Source: Minisyncoccota bacterium (GTDB lineage Bacteria; Patescibacteriota; Minisyncoccia; Phycocordibacterales; CAJQIN01). From it: a stretch of 39,738 nt of DNA. A program made the translations under genes and the position numbers. Where the stretch lies: positions 1-39,738 of the forward strand of contig JALEGR010000020.1 of NCBI GenBank assembly GCA_022763265.1. Direction: 5' to 3'. The notes beneath the pieces are model-generated. The model did not search any database. It saw only the letters and a program-made list of their open reading frames with translations, and had not been told where the DNA came from. This document shows positions 2,163 through 33,213 of the stretch, in pieces. The first letter of the stretch is position 1. Each line of letters opens with the position of its first letter.

Positions 2163-2268
2163 AAGTTAAATTGGAAGAAATGTATTGCCGATTCATCTCG
2201 TAAATACAACCTAGAGGAGTGGTTCGAAAATCCTTAACATTCAAGTGATTTTGTGGTATATATGTTTC

Positions 2269-2404
2269 GGAACCCTGGCACGACGTCAGGACCACAAACC
2301 CTAAAACCCCTAAATCGGGGAAAGGATAAAGAGGCGGTAGCGTAGATCATCTGTCTTTCAATAACACACTGCACCCCTGACTTCGGTCTCGGGTGCAGTT
2401 TTTT
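2269..2404 (+). ncRNA. candidate ~135-nt orphan transcript or leader of unknown class
   Basis: Extended -10 TGgTATATA (2254-2262), then a strong terminator at 2369-2404: CTGCACCC..GAC-UUCG-GUC..GGGTGCAG plus T6. Internal hairpin CCCC-taaatc-GGGG. Only a 27-codon SD-less ORF lies inside. Confidence 0.25.
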
Positions 2405-2518
2405 CATTAGAAGATCATTATTCTCCAAGATGATGATAGTAAACATCCGGTTAGTTGATACCTCCATTACTTAGGTGATTCCAAGGTGTTGCAAAAGTAT
2501 TGAAACATTACGCACCTA

Positions 2519-2547
2519 TTGACATGCAAACATATTTGTGCATAATA
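2519..2547 (+). promoter_or_regulatory. sigma70-type promoter TTGACA-17-ATAATA
   Basis: Exact TTGACA at 2519-2524 and ATAATA at 2542-2547, about 40 nt upstream of the channel gene start. Confidence 0.6.
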
Positions 2548-2588
2548 TTTTGCAGATCTGTAATCTTAAAAAGAAAGTGAGGTAAGAC

Positions 2589-3638
2589 TTGATCTTCTTC
2601 CAGAGGCTGCTTTGGTATTTGAGTCGATTCAGTACACTTTCCTTGATTGTGACATGCACTGTCCTTTTTTTTGGAGGATGGATGCTCATGGCATATTTTG
2701 AGGGTCCTGAATGTGGCTTCGTATCACCAGATGTCTTTTGGTGGTTTTTTATTGTCACTGGTACTACGGTTGGATATGGAGATTTCTCGCCAGTAACACT
2801 CGGTGGCAGGGTCACTGCTGCAATCATTATGATGGGTGGTATCGGTATATTTGCCGCCATTGTTGCAAAAATTACAGAACGAACAATCCAGTTCACACAA
2901 AGGAGAAACAAAGGCATGATCAATCTTCATATGAAGGGGCATGTAGTCATCTTTGGATATCGTGGTAAGGAAACTTCTCAGCTTGTCCGGGAACTTAGCG
3001 CTGATTCCGAAGGGGGTAGCGTGAAAATTGTCTTGTGTTCTGAAAACACAACTGAAAATCCTTTGAGTGGGGAAGCAGAATTTGTTAGTGGAGAGTTGAC
3101 GAGTGACGATGTTCTTGAAAGGGCCTGTGTGAATGATGCCAGGGGTGTAATTATCTATGGCAGAGATGATGCACAGACTCTAGCAGTTGGTATCGCAGTC
3201 AACAATGCCATGAAGAATGGTGCACATATTGTTGCCTATTTCGCACAGTCAGAAAATGCCATCCATCTGAAGAGGGTCAACTCAAAAATTGAGTGTGTAA
3301 CTGCTTTGTCGGTCCCACTTCTTGTTCAGGCCGTTCAGGATCCTGGCTCAACTGAGTCTATTGGAATTCTTGTAAGTAATCTTGATACTCAATGTACTCA
3401 ATACAGATTAAATCTTCCCACAACAATGGGGAGGGTCTTCTATGGTGAGTTGATGATCGCTCTCAAGAAGCGCTTCAATGCAACCATTATTGGTGTTGCT
3501 CGCTCTCATGACCACAATGCACAGGTTTGCCTTAATCTGGACGACAGTGTACAAGTTATTGGCGGTATGTCAGTTTTTTATATCGCCAAGTCACGCCTTA
3601 GTGTCGACCAGGTTGTTTCGTTAGTTAACGGTGCCTGA
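2589..3638 (+). CDS. two-TM potassium channel with C-terminal RCK/TrkA-N-like domain
   Basis: Selectivity filter TVGYGD (nt 2766-2783) sits between two hydrophobic helices. A Rossmann-like VVIFGYRGKETSQLVREL follows. TTG start lies 6 nt after the SD aagtgagg; the first in-frame ATG would delete TM1. Confidence 0.8.
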   Translation: MIFFQRLLWYLSRFSTLSLIVTCTVLFFGGWMLMAYFEGPECGFVSPDVFWWFFIVTGTTVGYGDFSPVTLGGRVTAAIIMMGGIGIFAAIVAKITERTIQFTQRRNKGMINLHMKGHVVIFGYRGKETSQLVRELSADSEGGSVKIVLCSENTTENPLSGEAEFVSGELTSDDVLERACVNDARGVIIYGRDDAQTLAVGIAVNNAMKNGAHIVAYFAQSENAIHLKRVNSKIECVTALSVPLLVQAVQDPGSTESIGILVSNLDTQCTQYRLNLPTTMGRVFYGELMIALKKRFNATIIGVARSHDHNAQVCLNLDDSVQVIGGMSVFYIAKSRLSVDQVVSLVNGA

Positions 3639-3654
3639 TTTACACAATCTTTCT

Positions 3655-3686
3655 AGCCGCTCGACATATGTCGAGCGGCTTCTTTT
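3655..3686 (+). terminator. rho-independent terminator (26-nt perfect palindrome)
   Basis: AGCCGCTCGACAT|ATGTCGAGCGGCT followed by tctttt. Confidence 0.75.
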
Positions 3687-3690
3687 AATA

Positions 3691-3719
3691 TTGACAAATA
3701 GGCATAAATTTGTTAATAT
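3691..3719 (+). promoter_or_regulatory. sigma70-type promoter TTGACA-17-TAATAT
   Basis: Exact -35 at 3691-3696 and -10 at 3714-3719, upstream of the 3780-8332 gene string. Confidence 0.6.
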
Positions 3720-3779
3720 CGCGAAGGAAATTTTGTTTTTTGACAACACAATCCTTACAAATGAAAGGAAGGAAAACGG

Positions 3780-4277
3780 ATGAAGTTGCTAATCTTTCTT
3801 GCAGTGATCGGAGCTATTGCTTTTGTTGTATACAAGTTGTCCGTAAAAAAGAAAGCCAATCCTGTTCAGGAGAAGGATCCAGTTAATGAACCTGAAGACA
3901 AGACAGTTGAAAACATTAGTATTCTTCAGGATCTCAATCTTCATGTTAGGAAGCATAGTCTTCCTGAATGTGTAATCCAGTCATTTGAATCTGTTGTTGA
4001 CTCTCTTCGAAGCTTGCTTCCGAGGGTTAACTCGGAACGTCCGAGCATGGATATTGTCTGGGTGGTGAATCGCATTGCGAATAAACATCTCCCGGAAATT
4101 ACTATGCGGTTTGTTTCCTTGTCTTGCGATGCACAAAACAGTAGTGCCAATCAGTTCATGAGTTCTATGAATGAACTTGATAAGGAACTGGGCGACATCA
4201 ACGACATTCTCGATTCACAAGACCAGCAGTTGTTTACGAATAAGGCGGAGTTTATCCGTCGTCGTTACGCACTTTAA
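3780..4277 (+). CDS. membrane-anchored helical protein, XpaC-like by position and architecture
   Basis: SD gaaaggaagg. N-terminal TM (LLIFLAVIGAIAFVVY) and a helical C-terminus. Lies directly upstream of a TelA-like gene, as xpaC does with yaaN in B. subtilis (from memory). Family assignment is unverified. Confidence 0.35.
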   Translation: MKLLIFLAVIGAIAFVVYKLSVKKKANPVQEKDPVNEPEDKTVENISILQDLNLHVRKHSLPECVIQSFESVVDSLRSLLPRVNSERPSMDIVWVVNRIANKHLPEITMRFVSLSCDAQNSSANQFMSSMNELDKELGDINDILDSQDQQLFTNKAEFIRRRYAL

Positions 4278-5509: not shown

Positions 5510-6148
5510 ATGCTTCAAACAGCTGAACCGGTAAGCACTACTAAATCCTTTGATCGGATTCGTCGTCTCCAAAAGCCTTTGAGCAAAGAGGAGGCGGTGA
5601 ATGCCACGATTAAGGACATCAAGAAGGGTGGTTTCTTGGAATTCCAAGGTACCACTTACGAAGTTATTTCTGTCGGCTTGTATACCGAAACCAACAAAGA
5701 CTATTCCCAGAAAAAGAAATTCTTCAGTGTTGAGCTTGAACTCGTGGATGTCATGAGTGGCAAGACGCTTTGGATGGAATGGGAAGAAGACGATGAGGTT
5801 GAAATCTGTGTCTCTCAGAGCCGTCATTCTCTGCGTGAAGTTAGGAATGAGGACGGCGACGTCATTAGTGACCCCTGGGATTATACCGACGAGGGCGAAT
5901 GTCTAGTTTTCCAAGGTATATCCTATTGGTACGATGATGATTGGCCTTCTGTGTACAAACGCGAAGGTCAGGATGATGAAGACAAGGTATACATGCATGA
6001 CTTTGAGTCCGAAAATGGCACATGTCTTTCCATTGAGAAGTGGATTGACGATGATGACACTTGTGAATTTCAGGTCTATGTATCAAAAAATGTCAGAGCC
6101 AGTGAGATCCAGATCTTACAGATCGGAGATCAAAATGGTGGCCAGTGA
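5510..6148 (+). CDS. DUF4178-like protein
   Basis: SD gaaggagg. Matches the remembered family pattern: KKGGFLEFQGTTYEVISVGLY ... WMEWEEDDEVEI ... FQGISYWYDD ... CLSIEKW ... EIQIL. Unverified without an HMM. Confidence 0.45.
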   Translation: MLQTAEPVSTTKSFDRIRRLQKPLSKEEAVNATIKDIKKGGFLEFQGTTYEVISVGLYTETNKDYSQKKKFFSVELELVDVMSGKTLWMEWEEDDEVEICVSQSRHSLREVRNEDGDVISDPWDYTDEGECLVFQGISYWYDDDWPSVYKREGQDDEDKVYMHDFESENGTCLSIEKWIDDDDTCEFQVYVSKNVRASEIQILQIGDQNGGQ

Positions 6149-6692
6149 AATCTACGTTGACCAGAGTGCTACAGAGCTTAGGCTGACAGCATGTACTGGT
6201 GTTGTGGATACTAGGCAATTCAATGTTCTTGAATCAGGCAAGATTAACAGTCAAGACTGGGTTTTGGAGTTTGGGATTATTGGCGGAAGCCACTTCTTCA
6301 TTCTCTATGGCCCAGAAAATACGATCTTATCTGAAGTCTTTGCTTGTACGACAGTTGATCCTTGTGGCAGAATCCTTTTCCAGGGTGACCCGCGTGGTTC
6401 AGCTAATATGACATTCCCGATTCAAAAACTCGTTTACAGCTTCCAGTATCATCTTATTACTAACTGGGAGATTGCAGACCAAGTCATAAGGGAAATGGAA
6501 AGTGGTGCCTCTGGTAAGTCAGACAGGCTAGTTCTACTAGCACATGACTTCCCTCATAATCCTGAAGATACTCGTGTCCCCAAGACCATTGTGGAAGCGA
6601 GAGCTGATTCTTTGGGTCTAAAGATTCGAACTATACACTCATATCCACAGGAGGATATGCTTGTGCAAACAATTTCACGTGTAAACCTTTAA
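6135..6692 (+). CDS. hypothetical protein (185 aa), positionally equivalent to DUF2617 in actinobacterial DUF4178/DUF350/SpeE loci
   Basis: The ATG at 6135 is preceded by ggagat and overlaps the upstream stop by 14 nt. The longer 5934 start would run through the preceding gene. Confidence 0.5.
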   Translation: MVASEIYVDQSATELRLTACTGVVDTRQFNVLESGKINSQDWVLEFGIIGGSHFFILYGPENTILSEVFACTTVDPCGRILFQGDPRGSANMTFPIQKLVYSFQYHLITNWEIADQVIREMESGASGKSDRLVLLAHDFPHNPEDTRVPKTIVEARADSLGLKIRTIHSYPQEDMLVQTISRVNL

Positions 6693-6715
6693 CAAAAAAG
6701 AAGGAGGTATATCTT

Positions 6716-8332
6716 ATGATGAGATATGCTCATTGGACTTTGGTACTCTGCCTTTTTGCTCTTGTGGGCTGTGGCGGATACTCGAAGGAAGAGAAGAAAT
6801 CGGTTGAAGTTGCCAAGAAAGAGCTTGATGACGCTAAGGCGTACGTTCAAACCCAGAAGGCAAAATATGAGCGAACTAAGGCTCATGAAGACTTTGCTGT
6901 ATTTGTTCGATATGCTGAGGATGAGAACTGGGACAAGTTTTTCCAGGACGCATCTTCCGAGGTTATCCATGCTCAGGGTGTCTATGGAAAGGAAATCCTG
7001 CCCGTCCTTGAAAGAAATGACAACAAGGAATGGAATCAGTTGAATAGTAATTTGACTCGAATCCGAACCTCTTCAAGGAACGCTCGGGATTTAGCAAAGA
7101 AAGCCTTTCAGCGTCTTGACTTTCTTCGTGAGGTTAAGAAGAACGCACCTGAAATGATCAAAAAAGCTGAAGGGGAATTTCAGCAGGTTGTGACTATCGT
7201 CGAGGATGCTTCGGTTGTTACTGAAAAAGCCAAGACTGATCATGTCGACTCTGCCAAGGAAATTGGTTCACGCTTTGCTATTTTGACAAAGTGGCAAGAC
7301 GAAGCTGGTAAGGCACTGGCAACATCACAAGTGGAAATCAAAAGGGAATTCCCTGACTACTCCGCAATTGGTGATAGTACAGTCCTTGTCAGTTCGCATC
7401 TTGAGGCCGTTAAGGGACATGTCCCTAAGTACAAGGAACAGATTGCTCATTTGTATGAGAGCTATTCCAAAATTCTTGAGGATATGAAGGTTGAATACTG
7501 TGTTCAGGTTGGTCGGACGAGTTGGGATAACTCGTCTGACTTTAATACTGAAAATGATTACACCTATCCGGCTAAGCAGGTTTCTGAAGAAGTTTACACC
7601 TACTTTGCTGGGCTTTCTGACTCGACTGTGCTTGCTACGGGAAGTAGTTCCCCACGGGTCAAAATCAACAGTAAAATGTGGAATGCCTTGGGGATTTCTC
7701 CTCGAGCATATTGGCCCAGTAGTCATGATGATGCCGAATGGTGGATTAGTAATGTTTCTGAGAAATACTACCATCGGTACTCTATTGTGTCGGCTGGCGA
7801 ACAAAAAACTACTGATTGGGTCGCTGTCTCAGAAGATGTCTATGGGAAACATTGGGAAGATCTTGGTATGGCCATTCTTACCAAACCCTTTGGCGTCTTT
7901 GAAGATGATGTGATTGAAGAAGCTTCTCCTCCTGGAATGGCACTTGTCGGAAACTCAAAGTACGGTGAGTGGAAACAGGATAGCGGGGGCGGTGGTTCTT
8001 TTTGGGAGTTTTACGGTAAATACCAGTTCTACTCAATGCTATTGGGTGGAAACCGTTACTACCACTCCGAGTGGGATACTTGGAACCGCGACTATCGTGG
8101 TCGAGGTGCCTACTATGGTGTTGGCAGTAATGGGTATACAAGGTACGGCACATACAGTGACCGTGTTGCGAGCTCGCCTCGATACTCAAAGAGCACTTTT
8201 GCTTCCCAAGGAGGATTCAAGAGTGCGGCATCTGATGTTAAGTCTGGCAATTTCAACGCCAGCCGGACATCTACTGTTCGAGGTGCTGGTGCCTCCGCCA
8301 GAGGCGGTGGTCCTGGCGGTAGCGGTAAGTAG
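6716..8332 (+). CDS. large lipoprotein (538 aa): helical K/E-rich N-half, W/Y/G-rich C-half with YjfM/DUF1190-like tail
   Basis: SD AAGGAGG at 6701. Signal peptide plus lipobox LFALVG-C. The C-terminus (GGGGSFWEFYGKYQFYSMLLGG ... QGGFKSAAS ... RGAGASARGGGPGGSGK) resembles the E. coli YjfM tail as I remember it. Confidence 0.7.
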   Translation: MMRYAHWTLVLCLFALVGCGGYSKEEKKSVEVAKKELDDAKAYVQTQKAKYERTKAHEDFAVFVRYAEDENWDKFFQDASSEVIHAQGVYGKEILPVLERNDNKEWNQLNSNLTRIRTSSRNARDLAKKAFQRLDFLREVKKNAPEMIKKAEGEFQQVVTIVEDASVVTEKAKTDHVDSAKEIGSRFAILTKWQDEAGKALATSQVEIKREFPDYSAIGDSTVLVSSHLEAVKGHVPKYKEQIAHLYESYSKILEDMKVEYCVQVGRTSWDNSSDFNTENDYTYPAKQVSEEVYTYFAGLSDSTVLATGSSSPRVKINSKMWNALGISPRAYWPSSHDDAEWWISNVSEKYYHRYSIVSAGEQKTTDWVAVSEDVYGKHWEDLGMAILTKPFGVFEDDVIEEASPPGMALVGNSKYGEWKQDSGGGGSFWEFYGKYQFYSMLLGGNRYYHSEWDTWNRDYRGRGAYYGVGSNGYTRYGTYSDRVASSPRYSKSTFASQGGFKSAASDVKSGNFNASRTSTVRGAGASARGGGPGGSGK

Positions 8333-22360: not shown

Positions 22361-23281
22361 ATGGACAAGAATCAATTATTACAATTAGTAAAAGAGTCAG
22401 TAGATAAGGGAGAGATATCCAAATCTGAAGTAAACTCTCTTTTCCAAAAAGATGGAAATCACGCAAGTAGGATTATCAACATTCTGTATGCTATCGGTGG
22501 AATAGTTATTCTAGCTGGTGTCATTGCACTAATCGCTCAAAACTGGGAAAGCTTACCTTCATTTGCAAGAATCCTGACCACCCTTGGCATGTCTATAGCT
22601 TTATATCTTGCCGCTTCTCTAGTCGTAAAAAGTAAAGAAGTTCTTTCACAAGTTCTGGCCGCAGTTTCTTTTGCGCTACTTCCTGTTGGTATAGGTGTTT
22701 CAATGTATGAAGGAGGGTCATTGATCGATAGGCCAGTTGATTTTGTTGTAATCTCTGGAATATCAACAATAGTTTCTGTAATATCGTATTTCACATTAAA
22801 GAAACTTCCTGTAACTATAATCTTCAACACCGTCTTCATTACAGCCCTAACATATAGTTTCGTATCACTAATCATGGAGAATGTCGGCTACACTGAGTTT
22901 AATGTATTCACCTATCTAACCATGGCTATTGGTATCTCGTACATAATTTTAGGAAGATATCTTTCTAACGAAAGATTAAGACAGCTACTTGTATCTATTG
23001 GAACACTAGGGCTTTTGATTGCAGGTATAACTCTTTCTGGACTTTGGGATGTTCTCTACATATTTATATTGTTTGCAGTATTTTTATTGAGTTCATATTG
23101 GAAGAAAAGATCAATGCTTGTCTTTGGGTCAATCTTCCTAATCTCCTATCTTTTTGAAATTACTTCAAAATATTTTGCCGGAAGTGTTGGCTGGCCAATT
23201 GCTCTAATTCTCCTTGGAATTTTGACAATTGCAATTGCCATAGTAACCTTTAGGGTTAGTAGAAAATATATAAATGAATGA
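22361..23281 (+). CDS. polytopic membrane protein (306 aa), possibly DUF2157-like
   Basis: Short soluble N-terminus followed by about 8 hydrophobic helices. Confidence 0.55.
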   Translation: MDKNQLLQLVKESVDKGEISKSEVNSLFQKDGNHASRIINILYAIGGIVILAGVIALIAQNWESLPSFARILTTLGMSIALYLAASLVVKSKEVLSQVLAAVSFALLPVGIGVSMYEGGSLIDRPVDFVVISGISTIVSVISYFTLKKLPVTIIFNTVFITALTYSFVSLIMENVGYTEFNVFTYLTMAIGISYIILGRYLSNERLRQLLVSIGTLGLLIAGITLSGLWDVLYIFILFAVFLLSSYWKKRSMLVFGSIFLISYLFEITSKYFAGSVGWPIALILLGILTIAIAIVTFRVSRKYINE

Positions 23282-26200
23282 TTACGATCACAAGAAGATA
23301 GAGGGGAAGTGGCAAAAAGAGTGGGAAAAACAAGAGTTGTACAAAGTAGAGGATAAAGATAAGGATAATTTCTATACTTTAGTTGAATTTCCATACTCAT
23401 CAGGAAACCTTCATATTGGTCATTGGTATACTTTTGCTGTACCTGACATATACGCAAGATATATGAGGATGACTGGAAAGAATGTCCTGTATCCAATAGG
23501 TTTTGATTCTTTTGGTTTGCCTGCTGAAAATGCTGCTATAAAAAGAAATTTAAACCCAAAAAAGTGGACTGATGAAAATATTGAGTATATGAGGGGACAG
23601 CTAAAGTCTATTGGTGCTTCTTTTGATTGGTCTAGAGAGCTAAAGACATCAGATCCTGATTACTATAAATGGACACAATATATCTTTACAAAGATGTTTG
23701 AGAAAGGTTTGGCGTATAAGTCAGAAGCTGCAGTAAACTGGTGTCCTTCTTGTATGACGGTTTTGGCTAACGAGCAGGTTGTAAATGGGTTATGTGAAAG
23801 GTGTGATACTGAAGTAGAGAAGAAAAAACAGGAACAATGGATGTTGAAGATCACAGATTATACTGAGGATCTTTTGAGTGGTCTAGATGATCTTGATTGG
23901 CCAGAGGAGATAAAGGAATCACAAAGAAACTGGATTGGCAAAAGTAGAGGAATGCTTTTGAAGTTTAAGGTGGGTGATGGAGAGGTTTCCGTTTTCACCA
24001 CAAGACCTGACACTATATGTGGTGTTACATATATAGTTCTTGCCCCAGAACATCCATTGATTGATAAGTTAGATATTAATAATAGGAAGGAGGTAGAAGA
24101 CTATATCGGGAAGTCACTCAAAAAAACTGAACTAGAAAGACAAACAGATCAGAAAGAAAAGACTGGTGTAAAACTAGAAGGGGTTTTTGCTAGGAATCCG
24201 ATAACTAATGAAGAGGTGCCAGTATACGTTGCTGATTATGTTCTAGCAGCATACGGAACAGGTGCTGTTATGGCAGTTCCAGCTCATGATGATAGAGACT
24301 TTGATTTTGCTAATAAGTTTGGGTTGCCAATTAAAGAAGTTGTAATACCAAATAGAGTTGATAAAAAAAATCCACCAGTTCCTGGAAAGAAATCAGTAGA
24401 AAGACAAAATGTACATGTTGTTGTAAAGAATCCAAAAGATGGAAAGTATCTTCTACTGAAATGGAAAGAGTATGACTGGACAACGTTTCCAATGGGTGGA
24501 GTTGAGGAAGGTGAGTCTCTGATTGAAGCTGCCAAAAGAGAGGTTCTAGAGGAAACGGGATATAAGAATTTGATTAATGGAAAAGTTCTTGGTGGTCAAG
24601 TTAGAGCTGAATATTTTGCAGCTCATAAAGATGAAAATAGGGTTTCTTTCACTAACCTAGTTACTTTTGATTTGGAGAATGAGGAACAAGATGAGGTTGA
24701 TGAGGAAGAATCCTCAAAACATGAGGTATGTTGGGTAGATGGGAAAGATCTAACTTTAGAGAAAATGACCCATGCTGAAATGGATGTGTGGATTTCAAGA
24801 TTAGACAAAGAATCTGGGGCATATACAGGGGATGGTGTGTTAGTTAACTCAGATGCAAGACTTCCTATATTCGGCAAAGAACATGAAAATGAAGAGTTTA
24901 GAAAAACAATTACTGGCATTGTTCAGAGAAAAGACGGAAAAATACTTTGTGTAAAATGGAAAGAGTTTGGATGGACATCTCTACCTATTGGAGGAATAGA
25001 TAAGGGTGAATTACCAGAGGAAGCAGCTCCTAGGGAGGTTCTAGAAGAAACTGGGTATAAAACTAAAGTTGTTAGGAGAATTGGGGGTCCAGTCGAAATG
25101 CATTTCTATGCAGAGAATAAGAAAGTATGGAGAAATAGGTTAGACCAAGCTGTTCTTCTGGAGCTGATAGATGACAAACAAGAAGACATTTCTAAAGAAG
25201 AAACAGAAAGACATGAATGTATGTGGCTTAATCCAGAGGAAGCAATAAATAATATGACTCACCCGGAGAATAGGCTTTGTCTAGAAAGGTTGGTGAGATC
25301 CGATGATTCATATACAGAAGGTGCAGATGAAATAAAAGGATATAACTTTAATGGTATACCTAATACCAAAGTCGAAATACCCGGAGAGAAAAAGACTACA
25401 TATAGGCTACGAGACTGGTCAGTTGGTAGACAAAGGTATTGGGGTACACCAATACCTGTAGTATATGATCCAGAGGGTAATCCTCACCCTATACCAGAAG
25501 AGAATTTACCATGGACTTTACCAGAAGATGTAGACTTCAAGCCAACTGGAGAACCTCCTCTTGCCAAATCAAAGGAATTGAAAGAAAGAACTGAAAAGAT
25601 TTTTGGTGAAGGTTGGAGACCAGAAGTTGAGACTATGGATACCTTCTTAGACTCTTCATGGTATTTCCTTAGATATATTGATCCCAGAAATAAAAAGGAA
25701 ATTTCATCTAAAGACATACAGAAAAACTGGATGCCAGTAGATCAATATTTTGGTGGTTCAGAGCACACTACCATGCATCTTCTTTTTGCTAGATTCTTCC
25801 AGAGGGTACTATATGACCTTGGGATGGTAACTGAGCAAGAACCATTCAAAAAGAGACTGAACAGAGGCCTTATAATGGGCCCAGATGGCTCAAAAATGAG
25901 CAAATCGAAGGGTAATGTCGTTGATCCAGATGAAGTAGTGGAAAGAGTTGGGGCTGACACCGTAAGGATGTATCTAGCTTTTATTGGTCCGTATGCAGAG
26001 GTTGGATCATATCCGTGGGATATGGGTGGTATTGTAGGTATTAGAAGGTTCCTAGAAAGGGTTAACTCTATAAAAATTACTGAGTCTAGCGATGCTATAA
26101 AAAGCTTACTACAGAAAACAATCAAAAAAGTTACGGATGATTTTATATTATTTAAGTTCAACACTGCTATTAGTAGTCTTATGATCTTTTTAAACTCTGT

Positions 26201-26555
26201 TCAAAAGGAAGGTATTGGAAAAGATGAGTATCTAGTGTTTCTGAGACTTTTAGCACCATTTGCACCACACTTATTAGAAGAGCTGTGGAAAAAGTCTGGC
26301 ATGAAAGAGTCAATTCATCTAAGTAAGTGGCCGAAGTATGATGAGAGTATGGTAGTAGAAGAAGGAGTCAAAGTTATGGTTCAAATTGATGGAAAGGTTA
26401 GAGGATCTATCTTGGTAGATAAGGATATTTCTGATAATGAGTTAGAAAAAATTGTAACTTCAGATGAGAAATTATCAGGATGGATATCTAAAGATTATGA
26501 AGTTAAAAAAGTAGTCAAAAACAGACTAATTAGTCTAATTAATAAAAGTGCTTGA
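23274..26555 (+). CDS. leuS: leucyl-tRNA synthetase with two inserted Nudix domains (1093 aa)
   Basis: LeuRS signatures: LHIGH, Cys cluster CPSC..CERC, CP1 editing motifs TTRPDT and YGTGAVMAVPAHDDRD, YRLRDWSVGRQRYWG, KMSKSKGN. Two canonical Nudix boxes at nt 24495-24563 and 24990-25058. Confidence 0.9.
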   Translation: MNDYDHKKIEGKWQKEWEKQELYKVEDKDKDNFYTLVEFPYSSGNLHIGHWYTFAVPDIYARYMRMTGKNVLYPIGFDSFGLPAENAAIKRNLNPKKWTDENIEYMRGQLKSIGASFDWSRELKTSDPDYYKWTQYIFTKMFEKGLAYKSEAAVNWCPSCMTVLANEQVVNGLCERCDTEVEKKKQEQWMLKITDYTEDLLSGLDDLDWPEEIKESQRNWIGKSRGMLLKFKVGDGEVSVFTTRPDTICGVTYIVLAPEHPLIDKLDINNRKEVEDYIGKSLKKTELERQTDQKEKTGVKLEGVFARNPITNEEVPVYVADYVLAAYGTGAVMAVPAHDDRDFDFANKFGLPIKEVVIPNRVDKKNPPVPGKKSVERQNVHVVVKNPKDGKYLLLKWKEYDWTTFPMGGVEEGESLIEAAKREVLEETGYKNLINGKVLGGQVRAEYFAAHKDENRVSFTNLVTFDLENEEQDEVDEEESSKHEVCWVDGKDLTLEKMTHAEMDVWISRLDKESGAYTGDGVLVNSDARLPIFGKEHENEEFRKTITGIVQRKDGKILCVKWKEFGWTSLPIGGIDKGELPEEAAPREVLEETGYKTKVVRRIGGPVEMHFYAENKKVWRNRLDQAVLLELIDDKQEDISKEETERHECMWLNPEEAINNMTHPENRLCLERLVRSDDSYTEGADEIKGYNFNGIPNTKVEIPGEKKTTYRLRDWSVGRQRYWGTPIPVVYDPEGNPHPIPEENLPWTLPEDVDFKPTGEPPLAKSKELKERTEKIFGEGWRPEVETMDTFLDSSWYFLRYIDPRNKKEISSKDIQKNWMPVDQYFGGSEHTTMHLLFARFFQRVLYDLGMVTEQEPFKKRLNRGLIMGPDGSKMSKSKGNVVDPDEVVERVGADTVRMYLAFIGPYAEVGSYPWDMGGIVGIRRFLERVNSIKITESSDAIKSLLQKTIKKVTDDFILFKFNTAISSLMIFLNSVQKEGIGKDEYLVFLRLLAPFAPHLLEELWKKSGMKESIHLSKWPKYDESMVVEEGVKVMVQIDGKVRGSILVDKDISDNELEKIVTSDEKLSGWISKDYEVKKVVKNRLISLINKSA

Positions 26556-26596: not shown

Positions 26597-27637
26597 ATGG
26601 ATAAGACAAATAACAAAATCACATTTAAACCAAAACAGGTAACAAAGAACCTGATTGCTGTTCTTAACGACCGGGCAAAAGACGTTATTATAAGCCGATA
26701 CGGTCTTGGTAAAGATACAGAGCGTTTAACTCTTGAGGCTATAGGCCAAAAATATGGTATTACACGAGAGCGTGTAAGACAGATTGAGAATCATTCTCTT
26801 AATCAAATAAGAAAATCAGAAGCCTATGATAAGGAGACTTCTGTTTTTGATGATTTAAAGAGTTACATAGATGACCTTGGAGCTATTGTTTCAGAAGAAG
26901 ACCTCCTAGAGACAATTGCAAAAGATGATAGTACTAGGAACCATATCCATTTCCTACTTGTTCTCGGACATCATTTTATGAAAGATAAGGAAGATGATAA
27001 TTTTGCTCACAGGTGGTATGTAGACAAAGAGGTAGCTGATGAAATTCATGGAGTACTTGATAAGGTTTACAAGAATCTTTCAGATGATGACATTATTCCG
27101 GAGTCAGAAATGATTTCTGACTTTCTAGATTATGTAAAAGATGTTTCCGATAAGCATAGAGATGAAGAAGTTGTCAAAAGGTGGCTTAGACTTTCAAAGA
27201 AGATTGGCCGAAATGACTTGGATGAATGGGGAAGGTCAACATCACCAAATATTAATGTGAAAGGTATTCGTGATTATGCATTCCTTGTAATTAGAAGGCA
27301 TGGATCACCAATCCACTTTAGGGAGGTTGCTAAGTCTATTAACGAAATCTTTAACAAGAAAGCACATGAGGCTACAACTCATAATGAGTTAATTAAGGAT
27401 CCAAGGTTCGTTCTAGTTGGAAGGGGTCTATATGCTCTTACAGAATGGGGATACACTAGTGGAGTTGTAAAGGATGTTATTAAAGAAATACTTGAAAAAA
27501 ATGGTCCACTAACTAAAGATGAGGTTATTGAGAAGGTTCTTAAGGAAAGATACGTGAAGGAAAACACAATTATGGTAAACCTTCAGAATCCAAACTACTT
27601 TAAGAAGACAAAGGAAGGAAAGTATACTCTAGCGTAA
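26597..27637 (+). CDS. DNA-binding protein with sigma-70 region-4-like HTH and C-terminal HARE-HTH-like domain
   Basis: LTLEAIGQKYGITRERVRQIENHSLNQIRK matches sigma r4. IHFREVAKSI...FVLVGRGLYALTEWGY resembles HARE-HTH or RpoE-N. Confidence 0.55.
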   Translation: MDKTNNKITFKPKQVTKNLIAVLNDRAKDVIISRYGLGKDTERLTLEAIGQKYGITRERVRQIENHSLNQIRKSEAYDKETSVFDDLKSYIDDLGAIVSEEDLLETIAKDDSTRNHIHFLLVLGHHFMKDKEDDNFAHRWYVDKEVADEIHGVLDKVYKNLSDDDIIPESEMISDFLDYVKDVSDKHRDEEVVKRWLRLSKKIGRNDLDEWGRSTSPNINVKGIRDYAFLVIRRHGSPIHFREVAKSINEIFNKKAHEATTHNELIKDPRFVLVGRGLYALTEWGYTSGVVKDVIKEILEKNGPLTKDEVIEKVLKERYVKENTIMVNLQNPNYFKKTKEGKYTLA

Positions 27638-32370: not shown

Positions 32371-33213
32371 ATGTTTGATGAGAAAATCCTAATTGAAAAG
32401 GCTACAGGAGAAAAAGAATATTTTGATCCTACAAAATTAGAGAATTCTTTACTCAGGTCTGGTGCAAATACAGCTATTGTTGATGAGGTTCTGGAGGAGA
32501 TTTCAAAAAAGATAACTCCAGGCATGACCACAAAGCATATCTATACATATGCTTTCTCTCTGCTAAACAAGAAGGATAAACCAGTTGCTGCCAACTACTC
32601 AACTAGAAGGGCTGTGATGGATCTAGGTCCATCTGGTTTTCCATTTGAGAATTTAATTGCTCATATGTACATGGAAATGGGTTACAGGACACATGTAGGA
32701 AGAAGGATTAGGGGTAAGTGTAGCGAGCATGAGGTAGATGTGCTTGCGTACAATGAAGAGGAAGTGATTCTAATTGAAGCAAAATTCCATAACCAACTAG
32801 GCATGAGAACGGATACAAAGGTTGCGCTGTATGTCAGAGCAAGATACGAAGATTTAGAAAATGCTGAGATTATGCTTGAGGGTAGAAAGAGAAAGATGAC
32901 AGAAGGGTGTCTTTTTACCAACACAAAGTTCACAAAAGGTGCCATTGATTATGCATCATGTGCGGGAGTAAATCTTGTAGGGTGGAATTATCCAGCAAAA
33001 GACAACCTCAATGACTTAATTGAAAAAACTAATATCCATCCAGTAACATCTTTAACCTCTATATCAAAAGCCCAGAAATTGCTACTTTTGGAACAGGGTG
33101 TGGTTCTATTGAAGAACATAAAGAAGAATGAGAATCTTTTAGGGCCACTTGGTTTATCAAGTGAAAAGAGGAAAAAAGTTTTGGATGAGATAAATCAAGT
33201 TTGCAATGATTAG
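32371..33213 (+). CDS. ATP-cone domain protein fused to a restriction-endonuclease-like (Mrr-type) domain
   Basis: N-terminal ATP-cone pattern (ILIEKATGEKEYFDPTKLENSL). PD-(D/E)xK-like EVDVLAY..VILIEAKFH. Confidence 0.65.
   Translation: MFDEKILIEKATGEKEYFDPTKLENSLLRSGANTAIVDEVLEEISKKITPGMTTKHIYTYAFSLLNKKDKPVAANYSTRRAVMDLGPSGFPFENLIAHMYMEMGYRTHVGRRIRGKCSEHEVDVLAYNEEEVILIEAKFHNQLGMRTDTKVALYVRARYEDLENAEIMLEGRKRKMTEGCLFTNTKFTKGAIDYASCAGVNLVGWNYPAKDNLNDLIEKTNIHPVTSLTSISKAQKLLLLEQGVVLLKNIKKNENLLGPLGLSSEKRKKVLDEINQVCND

Follow-up and report, generated by a model that had tools for sequence, protein, structure and literature searches.

The 39,738-nucleotide contig JALEGR010000020.1 of a Minisyncoccota (Patescibacteria) genome, analysed here over its whole length (the window), carries a leucyl-tRNA synthetase (LeuRS) gene, leuS, whose product contains two Nudix domains. 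The reading favoured here, with moderate confidence, is that this protein is a housekeeping LeuRS with two independently folding, catalytically competent Nudix modules in its CP1 editing domain, the first (module A) being ancestral and the second (module B) added later, and both probably being hydrolases of the branch that includes the diadenosine polyphosphate (ApnA) hydrolases and RppH. One embedded Nudix is a widespread trait of Patescibacteria and the second module is a rarer, later addition; the window protein is a rare two-subtype variant of this widespread LeuRS-Nudix architecture.

The leuS open reading frame (ORF) comprises 1093 amino acids (aa) with zero internal stops, uninterrupted as described in an earlier annotation made from the sequence alone (hereafter the first-pass annotation). 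The TIGR00396 (leuS_bact) model gave 902.8 bits on the whole protein (cutoff 548.4) in two stretches split by the insert, and the Pfam matches covered the class I core as well as the editing and anticodon-binding domains of LeuRS. The landmarks HIGH, TTRPDT, GTGAVMAVPAHDDRD (aa 328-342), YRLRDW and KMSKS were each located where that annotation had placed them, and IKEVVIP and AYTGDGVLVNS were identified at aa 353-359 and 516-526. The features of the gene are the following, with the evidence in brackets.

23274..26555, forward strand: leuS ORF, bacterial-type leucyl-tRNA synthetase, 1093 aa (TIGR00396; Foldseek, E. coli 5OMW/4AQ7).
23412..23423, forward strand: HIGH signature of the class I catalytic core, aa 47-50 (motif position).
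23919..24353, forward strand: CP1 editing domain, N-terminal four fifths, aa 216-360 (PF13603 at aa 218-365).
23997-24014, forward strand: TTRPDT editing-site motif, aa 242-247 (motif position).
Within 24255-24299, forward strand: AVPAHDDRD editing-site motif, with AHDxRD at aa 337-342 (motif position).
24354..24818, forward strand: module A (type A Nudix) with the 'NPP..GKK' linker, aa 361-515, at insertion site S2, the E. coli loop ~361-373 (Pfam, identities, predicted local distance difference test (pLDDT) >90).
24495..24563, forward strand: Nudix box of module A, GGVEEGESLIEAAKREVLEETGY, with Tyr447 at +17 (exact match to GX5EX7REUXEEXGU).
24819..24851, forward strand: AYTGDGVLVNS beta-hairpin of CP1 between the modules, approximately E. 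coli A374-S384 (motif, model, alignment).
24852..25307, forward strand: module B (type B Nudix) with the 'PIFGKEHENEEFRKT' linker, aa 527-678, at insertion site S3, E. coli S384/G385 (Pfam, identities, model).
24990..25058, forward strand: Nudix box of module B, GGIDKGELPEEAAPREVLEETGY, with Tyr612 at +17 (exact match to GX5EX7REUXEEXGU).
25308..25337, forward strand: SYTEGADEIK, degenerate second copy of the hairpin carried along with one module unit (A/B alignment; predicted disordered, pLDDT <50).
25338..25418, forward strand: CP1 resumes (GYNFNGI, aa 689-695, onwards) and returns to the catalytic core (motif position; alignment to solved LeuRSs).
25401-25418, forward strand: YRLRDW, aa 710-715 (motif position).
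25893..25907, forward strand: KMSKS signature, aa 874-878 (motif position).
26097..26429, forward strand: anticodon-binding domain PF08264 (Pfam).

Residues T242, T243, R244, T247, H338, D339, R341 and D342 are invariant among 115 LeuRS-Nudix proteins, where HIGH and KMSKS are invariant or near-invariant as well. The CP1 editing motifs (the Thr-rich TTRPDT and the Asp of AHDxRD) align to those of E. coli and Thermus LeuRS, the E. coli counterparts being T252 and D345. The intact synthetic and editing motifs, invariant in the 115 relatives, the fold match to solved LeuRSs and the housekeeping genes around leuS all speak for a functional enzyme. The window LeuRS is presumably the working housekeeping LeuRS of the organism; a second copy elsewhere is conceivable, one contig being in view. 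The deposited name of the protein (P0021, 100% identical, from a Candidatus Pacebacteria metagenome-assembled genome, MAG) is 'class I tRNA ligase family protein' and not leucine--tRNA ligase, despite the 902.8 bits, and the inserts may be the reason that the specific name was not assigned.

Both inserts exceed the PF00293 gathering cutoff of 21.1 bits: module A alone scored 62.4 bits (E 6e-17, aa 377-507, or 377-506 in the whole-protein scan) and module B alone 57.5 bits (E 1.9e-15, aa 543-667). The two Nudix boxes had been called perfect in the first pass and both are exact matches to the GX5EX7REUXEEXGU pattern. The modules had also been called paralogous, and they share 37% identity over 142 aa (E 5e-32), far above chance.

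The position of the inserts was one point in need of correction. They had been placed between CP1 and the catalytic core, whereas both lie within CP1: the PF13603 editing-domain profile matches with positions 1-148 of 185 only, ending at aa 365 where module A starts, and the isolated E. coli CP1 crystal construct 2AJG aligns beyond both insertion points. The sequence with the Nudix modules deleted is colinear with Thermus and E. coli LeuRS, module A taking the place of the loop between '...GLxIKxVI' and 'A(L/Y)TExGVLxNS' and module B standing between the 'NS' of the hairpin and 'GEFNG'. The E. coli PDB chain numbering is, we assume, offset by 20 (the known editing Asp345 being chain position 365), and with this offset the insertion sites are the loop ~361-373 and the S384/G385 junction in native numbering. 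Since the deleted sequence is colinear and 2AJG extends past both points, both inserts are inside the C-terminal part of CP1, flanking one beta-hairpin, and their earlier description as true in-frame internal insertions bracketing AYTGDGVLVNS stands.

A full-length AlphaFold model had a mean pLDDT of 82.9, with the LeuRS part and module A above 90 up to residue ~510, and its best structural matches among the E. coli, Thermus and Neisseria LeuRSs reached a Foldseek TM-score of 0.81 (normalised to target). At the AYTGDGVLVNS hairpin, where a strand is predicted at 521-522, the means of 10-residue blocks drop from 89 to 70. Module B was modelled separately, as an isolated domain, giving a Nudix fold with pLDDT 86.4, a helix at construct residues 55-67 and 538 Nudix matches in the PDB at E<=1e-3 by Foldseek; the same pattern of strands and helices was identified in module A in its full-length context, with pLDDT >90. 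The alpha/beta/alpha Nudix fold, with its box on a loop-helix-loop, is thus predicted for both modules.

The catalytic residues are conserved across most of the family. Of 268 modules at site S2, 242 have an intact REx2EE core, and 308 of 347 proteins (89%) have at least one intact module. Among the 20 proteins with several modules all contain at least one intact box, 11 have one degenerate module and eight, the window protein included, have all modules intact. Modules A and B of the window keep all family-invariant residues (G47, G48, E62, E65, E66, G68 and the X-loop K and R) and both appear catalytically competent. The remaining 39 of the 347 proteins (11%) have degenerate boxes only, mostly of a GQT...AAR[AQM]E variant, so hydrolysis would be dispensable in some lineages. 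In P0079, P0097, P0103, P0086 and ~35 others the box reads 'GGIEEGQT.EEAAR[AQM]E..EETG', with Gx5E changed to Q and the Arg shifted one position, and it belongs to the sole module of some LeuRSs; this resembles a separate subtype, probably non-canonical, more than it does chance decay.

These degenerate forms bear on a mainly non-catalytic role, in which the modules would bind or sense a nucleotide, or bind RNA or protein, and so modulate CP1 movement or tRNA handling, the boxes being kept for ligand or metal. The modules of the degenerate-only proteins are still full length, degenerate partners occur in those 11 multi-module proteins, and the Nudix clan does have non-enzymatic members (PMC5389931). 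However, the complete REx2EE core in 89% of the proteins, the fully canonical state of both window modules and the scattering of the degenerate forms through the tree as a derived minority make such a role improbable.

The modules were also compared with characterised Nudix proteins. The best PDB matches by sequence were the Ap4A (diadenosine tetraphosphate) hydrolases 1F3Y and 3I7U, the decapping effector AvrM14 and RppH; by fold, the best Foldseek matches were the ApnA hydrolase Rv2985/MutT1, the Aquifex Ap4A hydrolase (TM-score 0.79-0.82), the Thermus Ap6A hydrolase Ndx1 (0.81), CT771 and RppH. The ApnA hydrolases head both lists, with RppH, MutT-like and NudI-like proteins close behind, at identities of 16-27%. 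The best NCBIfam matches were RppH and YtkD, with MutT1 first for module B, all far below the cutoffs, and neither module falls within the RppH families as modelled there (PRK00714 models and TIGR02705 for YtkD; best 23-29 bits against cutoffs of 116-259). Counting from the box, position +17 is aromatic (Y/F) in ~97% of the type A and type B modules, with a near-invariant Lys and Arg after it, and in the window this X-loop residue is Tyr in both modules (Y447 and Y612), a marker that is correlative only. According to PMC5389931, which summarises Dunn et al. 1999, ApnA hydrolase activity goes together with a Tyr some 16-18 residues past the box in the X-loop.

The first-pass annotation had proposed that the modules could clear ApnA compounds or mis-activated adenylates, or sense a nucleotide. 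Synthetases form Ap4A-type compounds from aminoacyl-adenylates, and the adenylates themselves are not nucleoside-diphosphate-X (NDP-X) compounds. Some support for a role in ApnA hydrolysis comes from the likenesses above, while the clearing of mis-activated adenylates gained none.

The distribution of the architecture was followed in several searches. With the insert alone as query, the matches were LeuRS fragments from metagenomes of Patescibacteria, almost all of them carrying one Nudix in the same place. The module A alignment, scanned against one genome per species, confirmed 391 stretches, a figure that says nothing on the prevalence of type B, the search patterns being largely specific for type A; the best 80 of these loci were all from Patescibacteria/Paceibacteria-type MAGs, a few with evidently wrong phylum labels, and the module was inside a LeuRS-sized ORF (940-1170 aa) in the 78 of them that could be analysed. 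A PF00293 domain was precomputed in all of the 120 best LeuRS relatives found with the full-length protein. Searched exhaustively with HMMER, 1.84 billion cluster representatives yielded 1446 matches at E<=1e-3. Among the best 150 of these, ~110 were LeuRSs or pieces of them, and the remainder were short Nudix proteins encoded on their own, or fragments.

The first-pass annotation was aware of no described LeuRS of this build, which holds for the literature but only partly for the databases. The literature searched, including the 2017 review of the Nudix clan (PMC5389931), yielded no description of a synthetase-Nudix architecture, which is not proof of absence. In the databases, on the other hand, the architecture is common, as the 120 relatives and 391 stretches indicate, known there by automatic domain annotation and with no described family. 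LeuRS with an embedded Nudix is in this sense common, machine-annotated and apparently undescribed. Paceibacteria-type LeuRS-Nudix proteins were also identified in MAGs titled Thermodesulfobacteriota, Gammaproteobacteria and Saccharibacteria (L003, L020, L054, L068, L079 and many 'Saccharibacteria' records), and these odd labels are likely binning or labelling errors.

Two subtypes of module were distinguished. Module A shares 60-82% identity with the single modules of its relatives (82% with that of P0023 and 72% with that of P0022) and carries the signature AEYFAAHKDENR. Identity between module B and A-type modules is just ~36%; a metagenome scan with module B returned LeuRSs with a lone B-type module at the standard site and the signature E.HF[YF]AENK.VWR.R, and the nearest relatives of B (P0148, L081/82, P0081, P0151 and others), 50-58% identical, are all single S2 modules. 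The inter-module linker 'LPIFGKEHENEEFRKTI' resembles the linker before B in the B-only LeuRSs and the alignment of A and B extends into the hairpin ('SGAYT' and 'DDSYT'), so that the repeating unit is formed by linker, Nudix and hairpin. The second hairpin copy of the window has decayed to SYTEGADEIK and is disordered in the module B model.

The order of acquisition was approached with a neighbour-joining tree of the LeuRS core (735 insert-free columns, 200 bootstraps). The window LeuRS is sister to P0022, which has module A only and 80% core identity, in 200 of 200 bootstraps, and all its neighbours have A only. Five LeuRSs with a Nudix-hairpin-Nudix arrangement (P0070, P0080, P0120, P0126 and P0130) form their own clade in 200 of 200, which the window joins in 0 of 200. 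Module A, orthologous to the single Nudix at S2 in hundreds of Patescibacteria LeuRSs, would be the ancestral insert of the lineage. Because the sister and neighbours of the window LeuRS are A only, the tandem clade is separate and the kin of B are single S2 modules, module B was most likely gained later, on the branch of the window and independently of the other tandem clade. The core is 80% identical to P0022 and 69% to P0023, the reverse of the order seen for module A, and this mosaic suggests recombination within leuS between lineages.

Two other origins of the pair were rejected. A simple, recent tandem duplication is not borne out by the 37% identity of the modules, by the DNA, where a 21-nt match coding for the box is the only repeat, or by the kin of B, A and B being two old subtypes that each stand alone at S2 in other LeuRSs. 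Descent of the pair from a common ancestor with P0070, P0080, P0120, P0126 and P0130 was rejected on the 0 of 200 bootstraps.

Module B is also the part for which an artefact has to be considered: a chimeric assembly of two co-occurring leuS alleles or, for the insert as a whole, an intein-like or mobile element that is lost from the mature product. In favour of this, the window contig is the only one on which the exact A+B arrangement was found, but the frame is held through both junctions without stops, the GC content, the GC content at third codon positions and the codon usage of module B are indistinguishable from those of the host gene (L1 distance 0.52, control mean 0.51) and the DNA has no long repeats. 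Both the distance to the nearest known B module and the degeneration of the trailing hairpin copy need evolutionary time, and the Nudix-hairpin-Nudix topology is shared by an independent clade. No Hint/intein family was found in the whole-protein Pfam scan and the junctions VVIP/NRVD, VNS/DARL and EIK/GYNF have no splice-junction residues. The artefact, intein and mobile-element explanations are accordingly rejected as very improbable on frame, composition, divergence and absent Hint motifs, and the reading as an insertion stands. The matching composition means that the event that added B is old or that its donor was compositionally similar.

Placing 385 modules by insertion site gave five sites: S0 before 'WPExIK', S1 before TTRPDT, S2 before the hairpin, S3 after the hairpin and S4 after RQRYWG. 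The great majority are at S2, module B of the window is at S3, and two or three modules were identified in 20 LeuRS proteins, so that a LeuRS may carry one, two or three modules and the sites number five or more.

Among these, L004 (aa ~252-406 of the leuS ORF), P0034 and P0085 have a second Nudix just before 'VFTTRPDT' in CP1, canonical in P0034 and degenerate in the other two (box E to Q, R to A). A pair formed by a canonical and a degenerate Nudix was identified upstream of CP1, before 'LLDWPESIKE', in P0141, P0143, P0145 and P0146; P0141 and P0145 contain three modules in one LeuRS, and P0143 has its pair at S0 with no module and no hairpin at S2. Free-standing forms also occur. P0017, a degenerate-box Nudix, is encoded 189 bp upstream of leuS on the same strand (L087/L088; genes 25-609, 798-2213 and 2171-3898), and the leuS of L087/L088 is called as two overlapping ORFs (471 and 575 aa) that break at the embedded Nudix, either by a frameshift or as a genuinely split LeuRS. 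P0019 and its relative P0020 (L084-L086, gene 6001-6831) are free-standing proteins of 274-276 aa (276 in P0019) comprising a degenerate C-terminal CP1 remnant (SHIQKD for AHDxRD), a canonical Nudix and the AYTGDG hairpin; the gene was identified on 8 contigs, flanked by an HTH gene and an ftsW-mraY-PBP cell-wall cluster, with leuS not nearby.

Inserts other than Nudix were also identified in the LeuRSs: alpha/beta-hydrolase (Ser_hydrolase) in L046, L079, P0043 and L083; HAD_2 in P0148; DUF559/MTES_1575 in P0041; an 'ETRALNPEE..RYFGN' insert of ~110-140 aa without a Pfam match in L018, L049, L054 and L068; and an insert with no significant match in P0069. They are mostly small hydrolases, located in CP1 and after 'RQRYWGEPIP', and the LeuRS of Patescibacteria looks like a general hot spot for domain insertion.

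The main rival reading starts from this tolerance. An active housecleaning Nudix would ride by opportunistic accretion in permissive CP1 loops of an essential, constitutive gene of a streamlined genome, with a chemistry unrelated to leucylation, editing or tRNA. The hydrolase, HAD-like, DUF559 endonuclease-like and unassigned modules at several sites of the relatives' LeuRSs agree with it, as do the spread of Nudix over five or more sites without fixed geometry, the free-standing kin and the CP1-remnant protein in the cell-wall cluster away from leuS. Yet the Nudix family is overwhelmingly found in LeuRS and not over many hosts, P0143 has modules at another site although it lacks the one at S2, and a free-standing copy adjoins leuS. 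Accretion is on balance somewhat unlikely. This association (~110 of the best 150 representatives, at least five sites, P0143 and P0017) counts in the favoured reading for a link to LeuRS in particular. A bolder reading makes the Nudix a selected, functionally integrated third activity of LeuRS across much of Patescibacteria, its site free and its presence kept, acting in cis on a product or ligand of LeuRS such as Ap4A/Np4N made from Leu-AMP, or an adduct (polyphosphate, cap or ADP-ribose-type) at a tRNA end presented near CP1, with A+B as its two-specificity version. We regard this stronger version as unlikely too.

In the favoured reading the CP1 surface would bear two looped-out Nudix modules on either side of one beta-hairpin, module B having come from a B-type leuS unit (linker, Nudix and hairpin) through recombination or duplication. 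The modules would be Mg2+-dependent pyrophosphohydrolases of the ApnA-hydrolase/RppH branch and, tethered to LeuRS, might hydrolyse Ap4A/Ap3A-type side products of the synthetase or a similar NDP-X or 5'-polyphosphate/capped-RNA substrate. With two subtypes the substrate range could be widened or split, while aminoacylation and post-transfer editing would be unchanged.

Several points weigh against this reading, besides the degenerate-only boxes already described. The substrate likeness is family-level and weak (E ~1e-8 to 1e-10, 16-27% identity). The full-length model leaves module B and the return segment at GYNFNGI unplaced, with pLDDT <50, because few alignment rows cover them. The wider A-only clade appears in 97 of 200 bootstraps, and a gain of B on the window branch is preferred by parsimony alone to a gain followed by loss in P0022. 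Finally, the same LeuRSs host alpha/beta-hydrolase, HAD, DUF559 and unassigned inserts, which fits permissive loops whether coupled or not. Given the ~11% of proteins with degenerate-only boxes and the gathering of other inserts, functional coupling of the Nudix to LeuRS is no more than plausible.

The neighbours of leuS in the window are housekeeping genes (YchF, a DUF2157 membrane protein, a sigma70-r4/HARE-HTH protein, isochorismatase, YceG and MnmA). The gene directly downstream (26597-27637, forward strand) encodes a 346-aa protein with N-terminal sigma-70 region 4 and HARE-HTH, which is not a standard sigma factor, and at 32371-33213 (forward strand) a 280-aa protein presents an unusual pairing of an ATP-cone domain with an Mrr-type restriction-endonuclease catalytic domain.

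Aminoacyl-tRNA synthetases have been studied as closely as almost any enzymes; they are the classical source of Ap4A-type alarmones and have lately been linked to Np4 RNA caps. A Nudix hydrolase built into one of them, retained in hundreds of species of a major bacterial radiation that is still little understood and with no description found in the literature searched, would surprise synthetase specialists, the tandem pair being a secondary elaboration and the mechanism a prediction from sequence. Coupling of the hydrolase to LeuRS would make it a new type of quality or signalling control built into a synthetase; without coupling, the locus would still illustrate how a streamlined genome can lodge enzymes of unrelated function in the permissive loops of its essential proteins. 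The window pair is a natural experiment with two subtypes in one polypeptide. For annotators it is a warning that the name 'class I tRNA ligase family protein' conceals a predicted bifunctional enzyme.

Compared with known systems, the window protein has the domain order, the HIGH and KMSKS signatures, the CP1 motifs and the anticodon-binding and C-terminal domains of the bacterial LeuRSs of E. coli (4AQ7/4ARC/5OMW) and T. thermophilus (1H3N/2BTE). It differs from them in ~330 extra residues, the two Nudix domains in CP1, whereas the solved LeuRSs (~800-880 aa) have nothing at either insertion point. An extra catalytic domain in a class Ia synthetase is known from the IleRS with an N-acetyltransferase domain (NCBIfam NF040702, ileS_w_GNAT), with another host, domain and position; that family is named in NCBIfam and LeuRS-Nudix is not, and the match of its model to the window protein runs through the shared class I core.

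The modules share with the ApnA hydrolases (Aquifex aq_158, 3I7U; T. thermophilus Ndx1, 1VC8; M. tuberculosis Rv2985/MutT1, 9CXX; Chlamydia CT771; and the lupin enzyme, 1F3Y) the Nudix fold, a complete box and the Tyr ~17 residues downstream. They differ from these in being embedded rather than free-standing, in an identity of 19-27% and in X-loop signatures of their own (AEYFAAHKDENR in A and E.HF[YF]AENK.VWR.R in B). RppH/NudH (E. coli 4S2X and 7SP3; B. subtilis YtkD) is among the best NCBIfam matches and in the Foldseek list, at 15-18% identity in structural alignments and with scores such as 28.7 bits against a cutoff of 139; RppH cleaves Ap4A and Np4-capped RNA too. Double MutT/Nudix-domain proteins (Lin et al. 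2009, reference 61 of PMC5389931) reportedly carry two Nudix domains per polypeptide and have repeated, independent origins. Those proteins are stand-alone, whereas the two modules of the window are separately looped out of an editing domain and come from two old subtypes.

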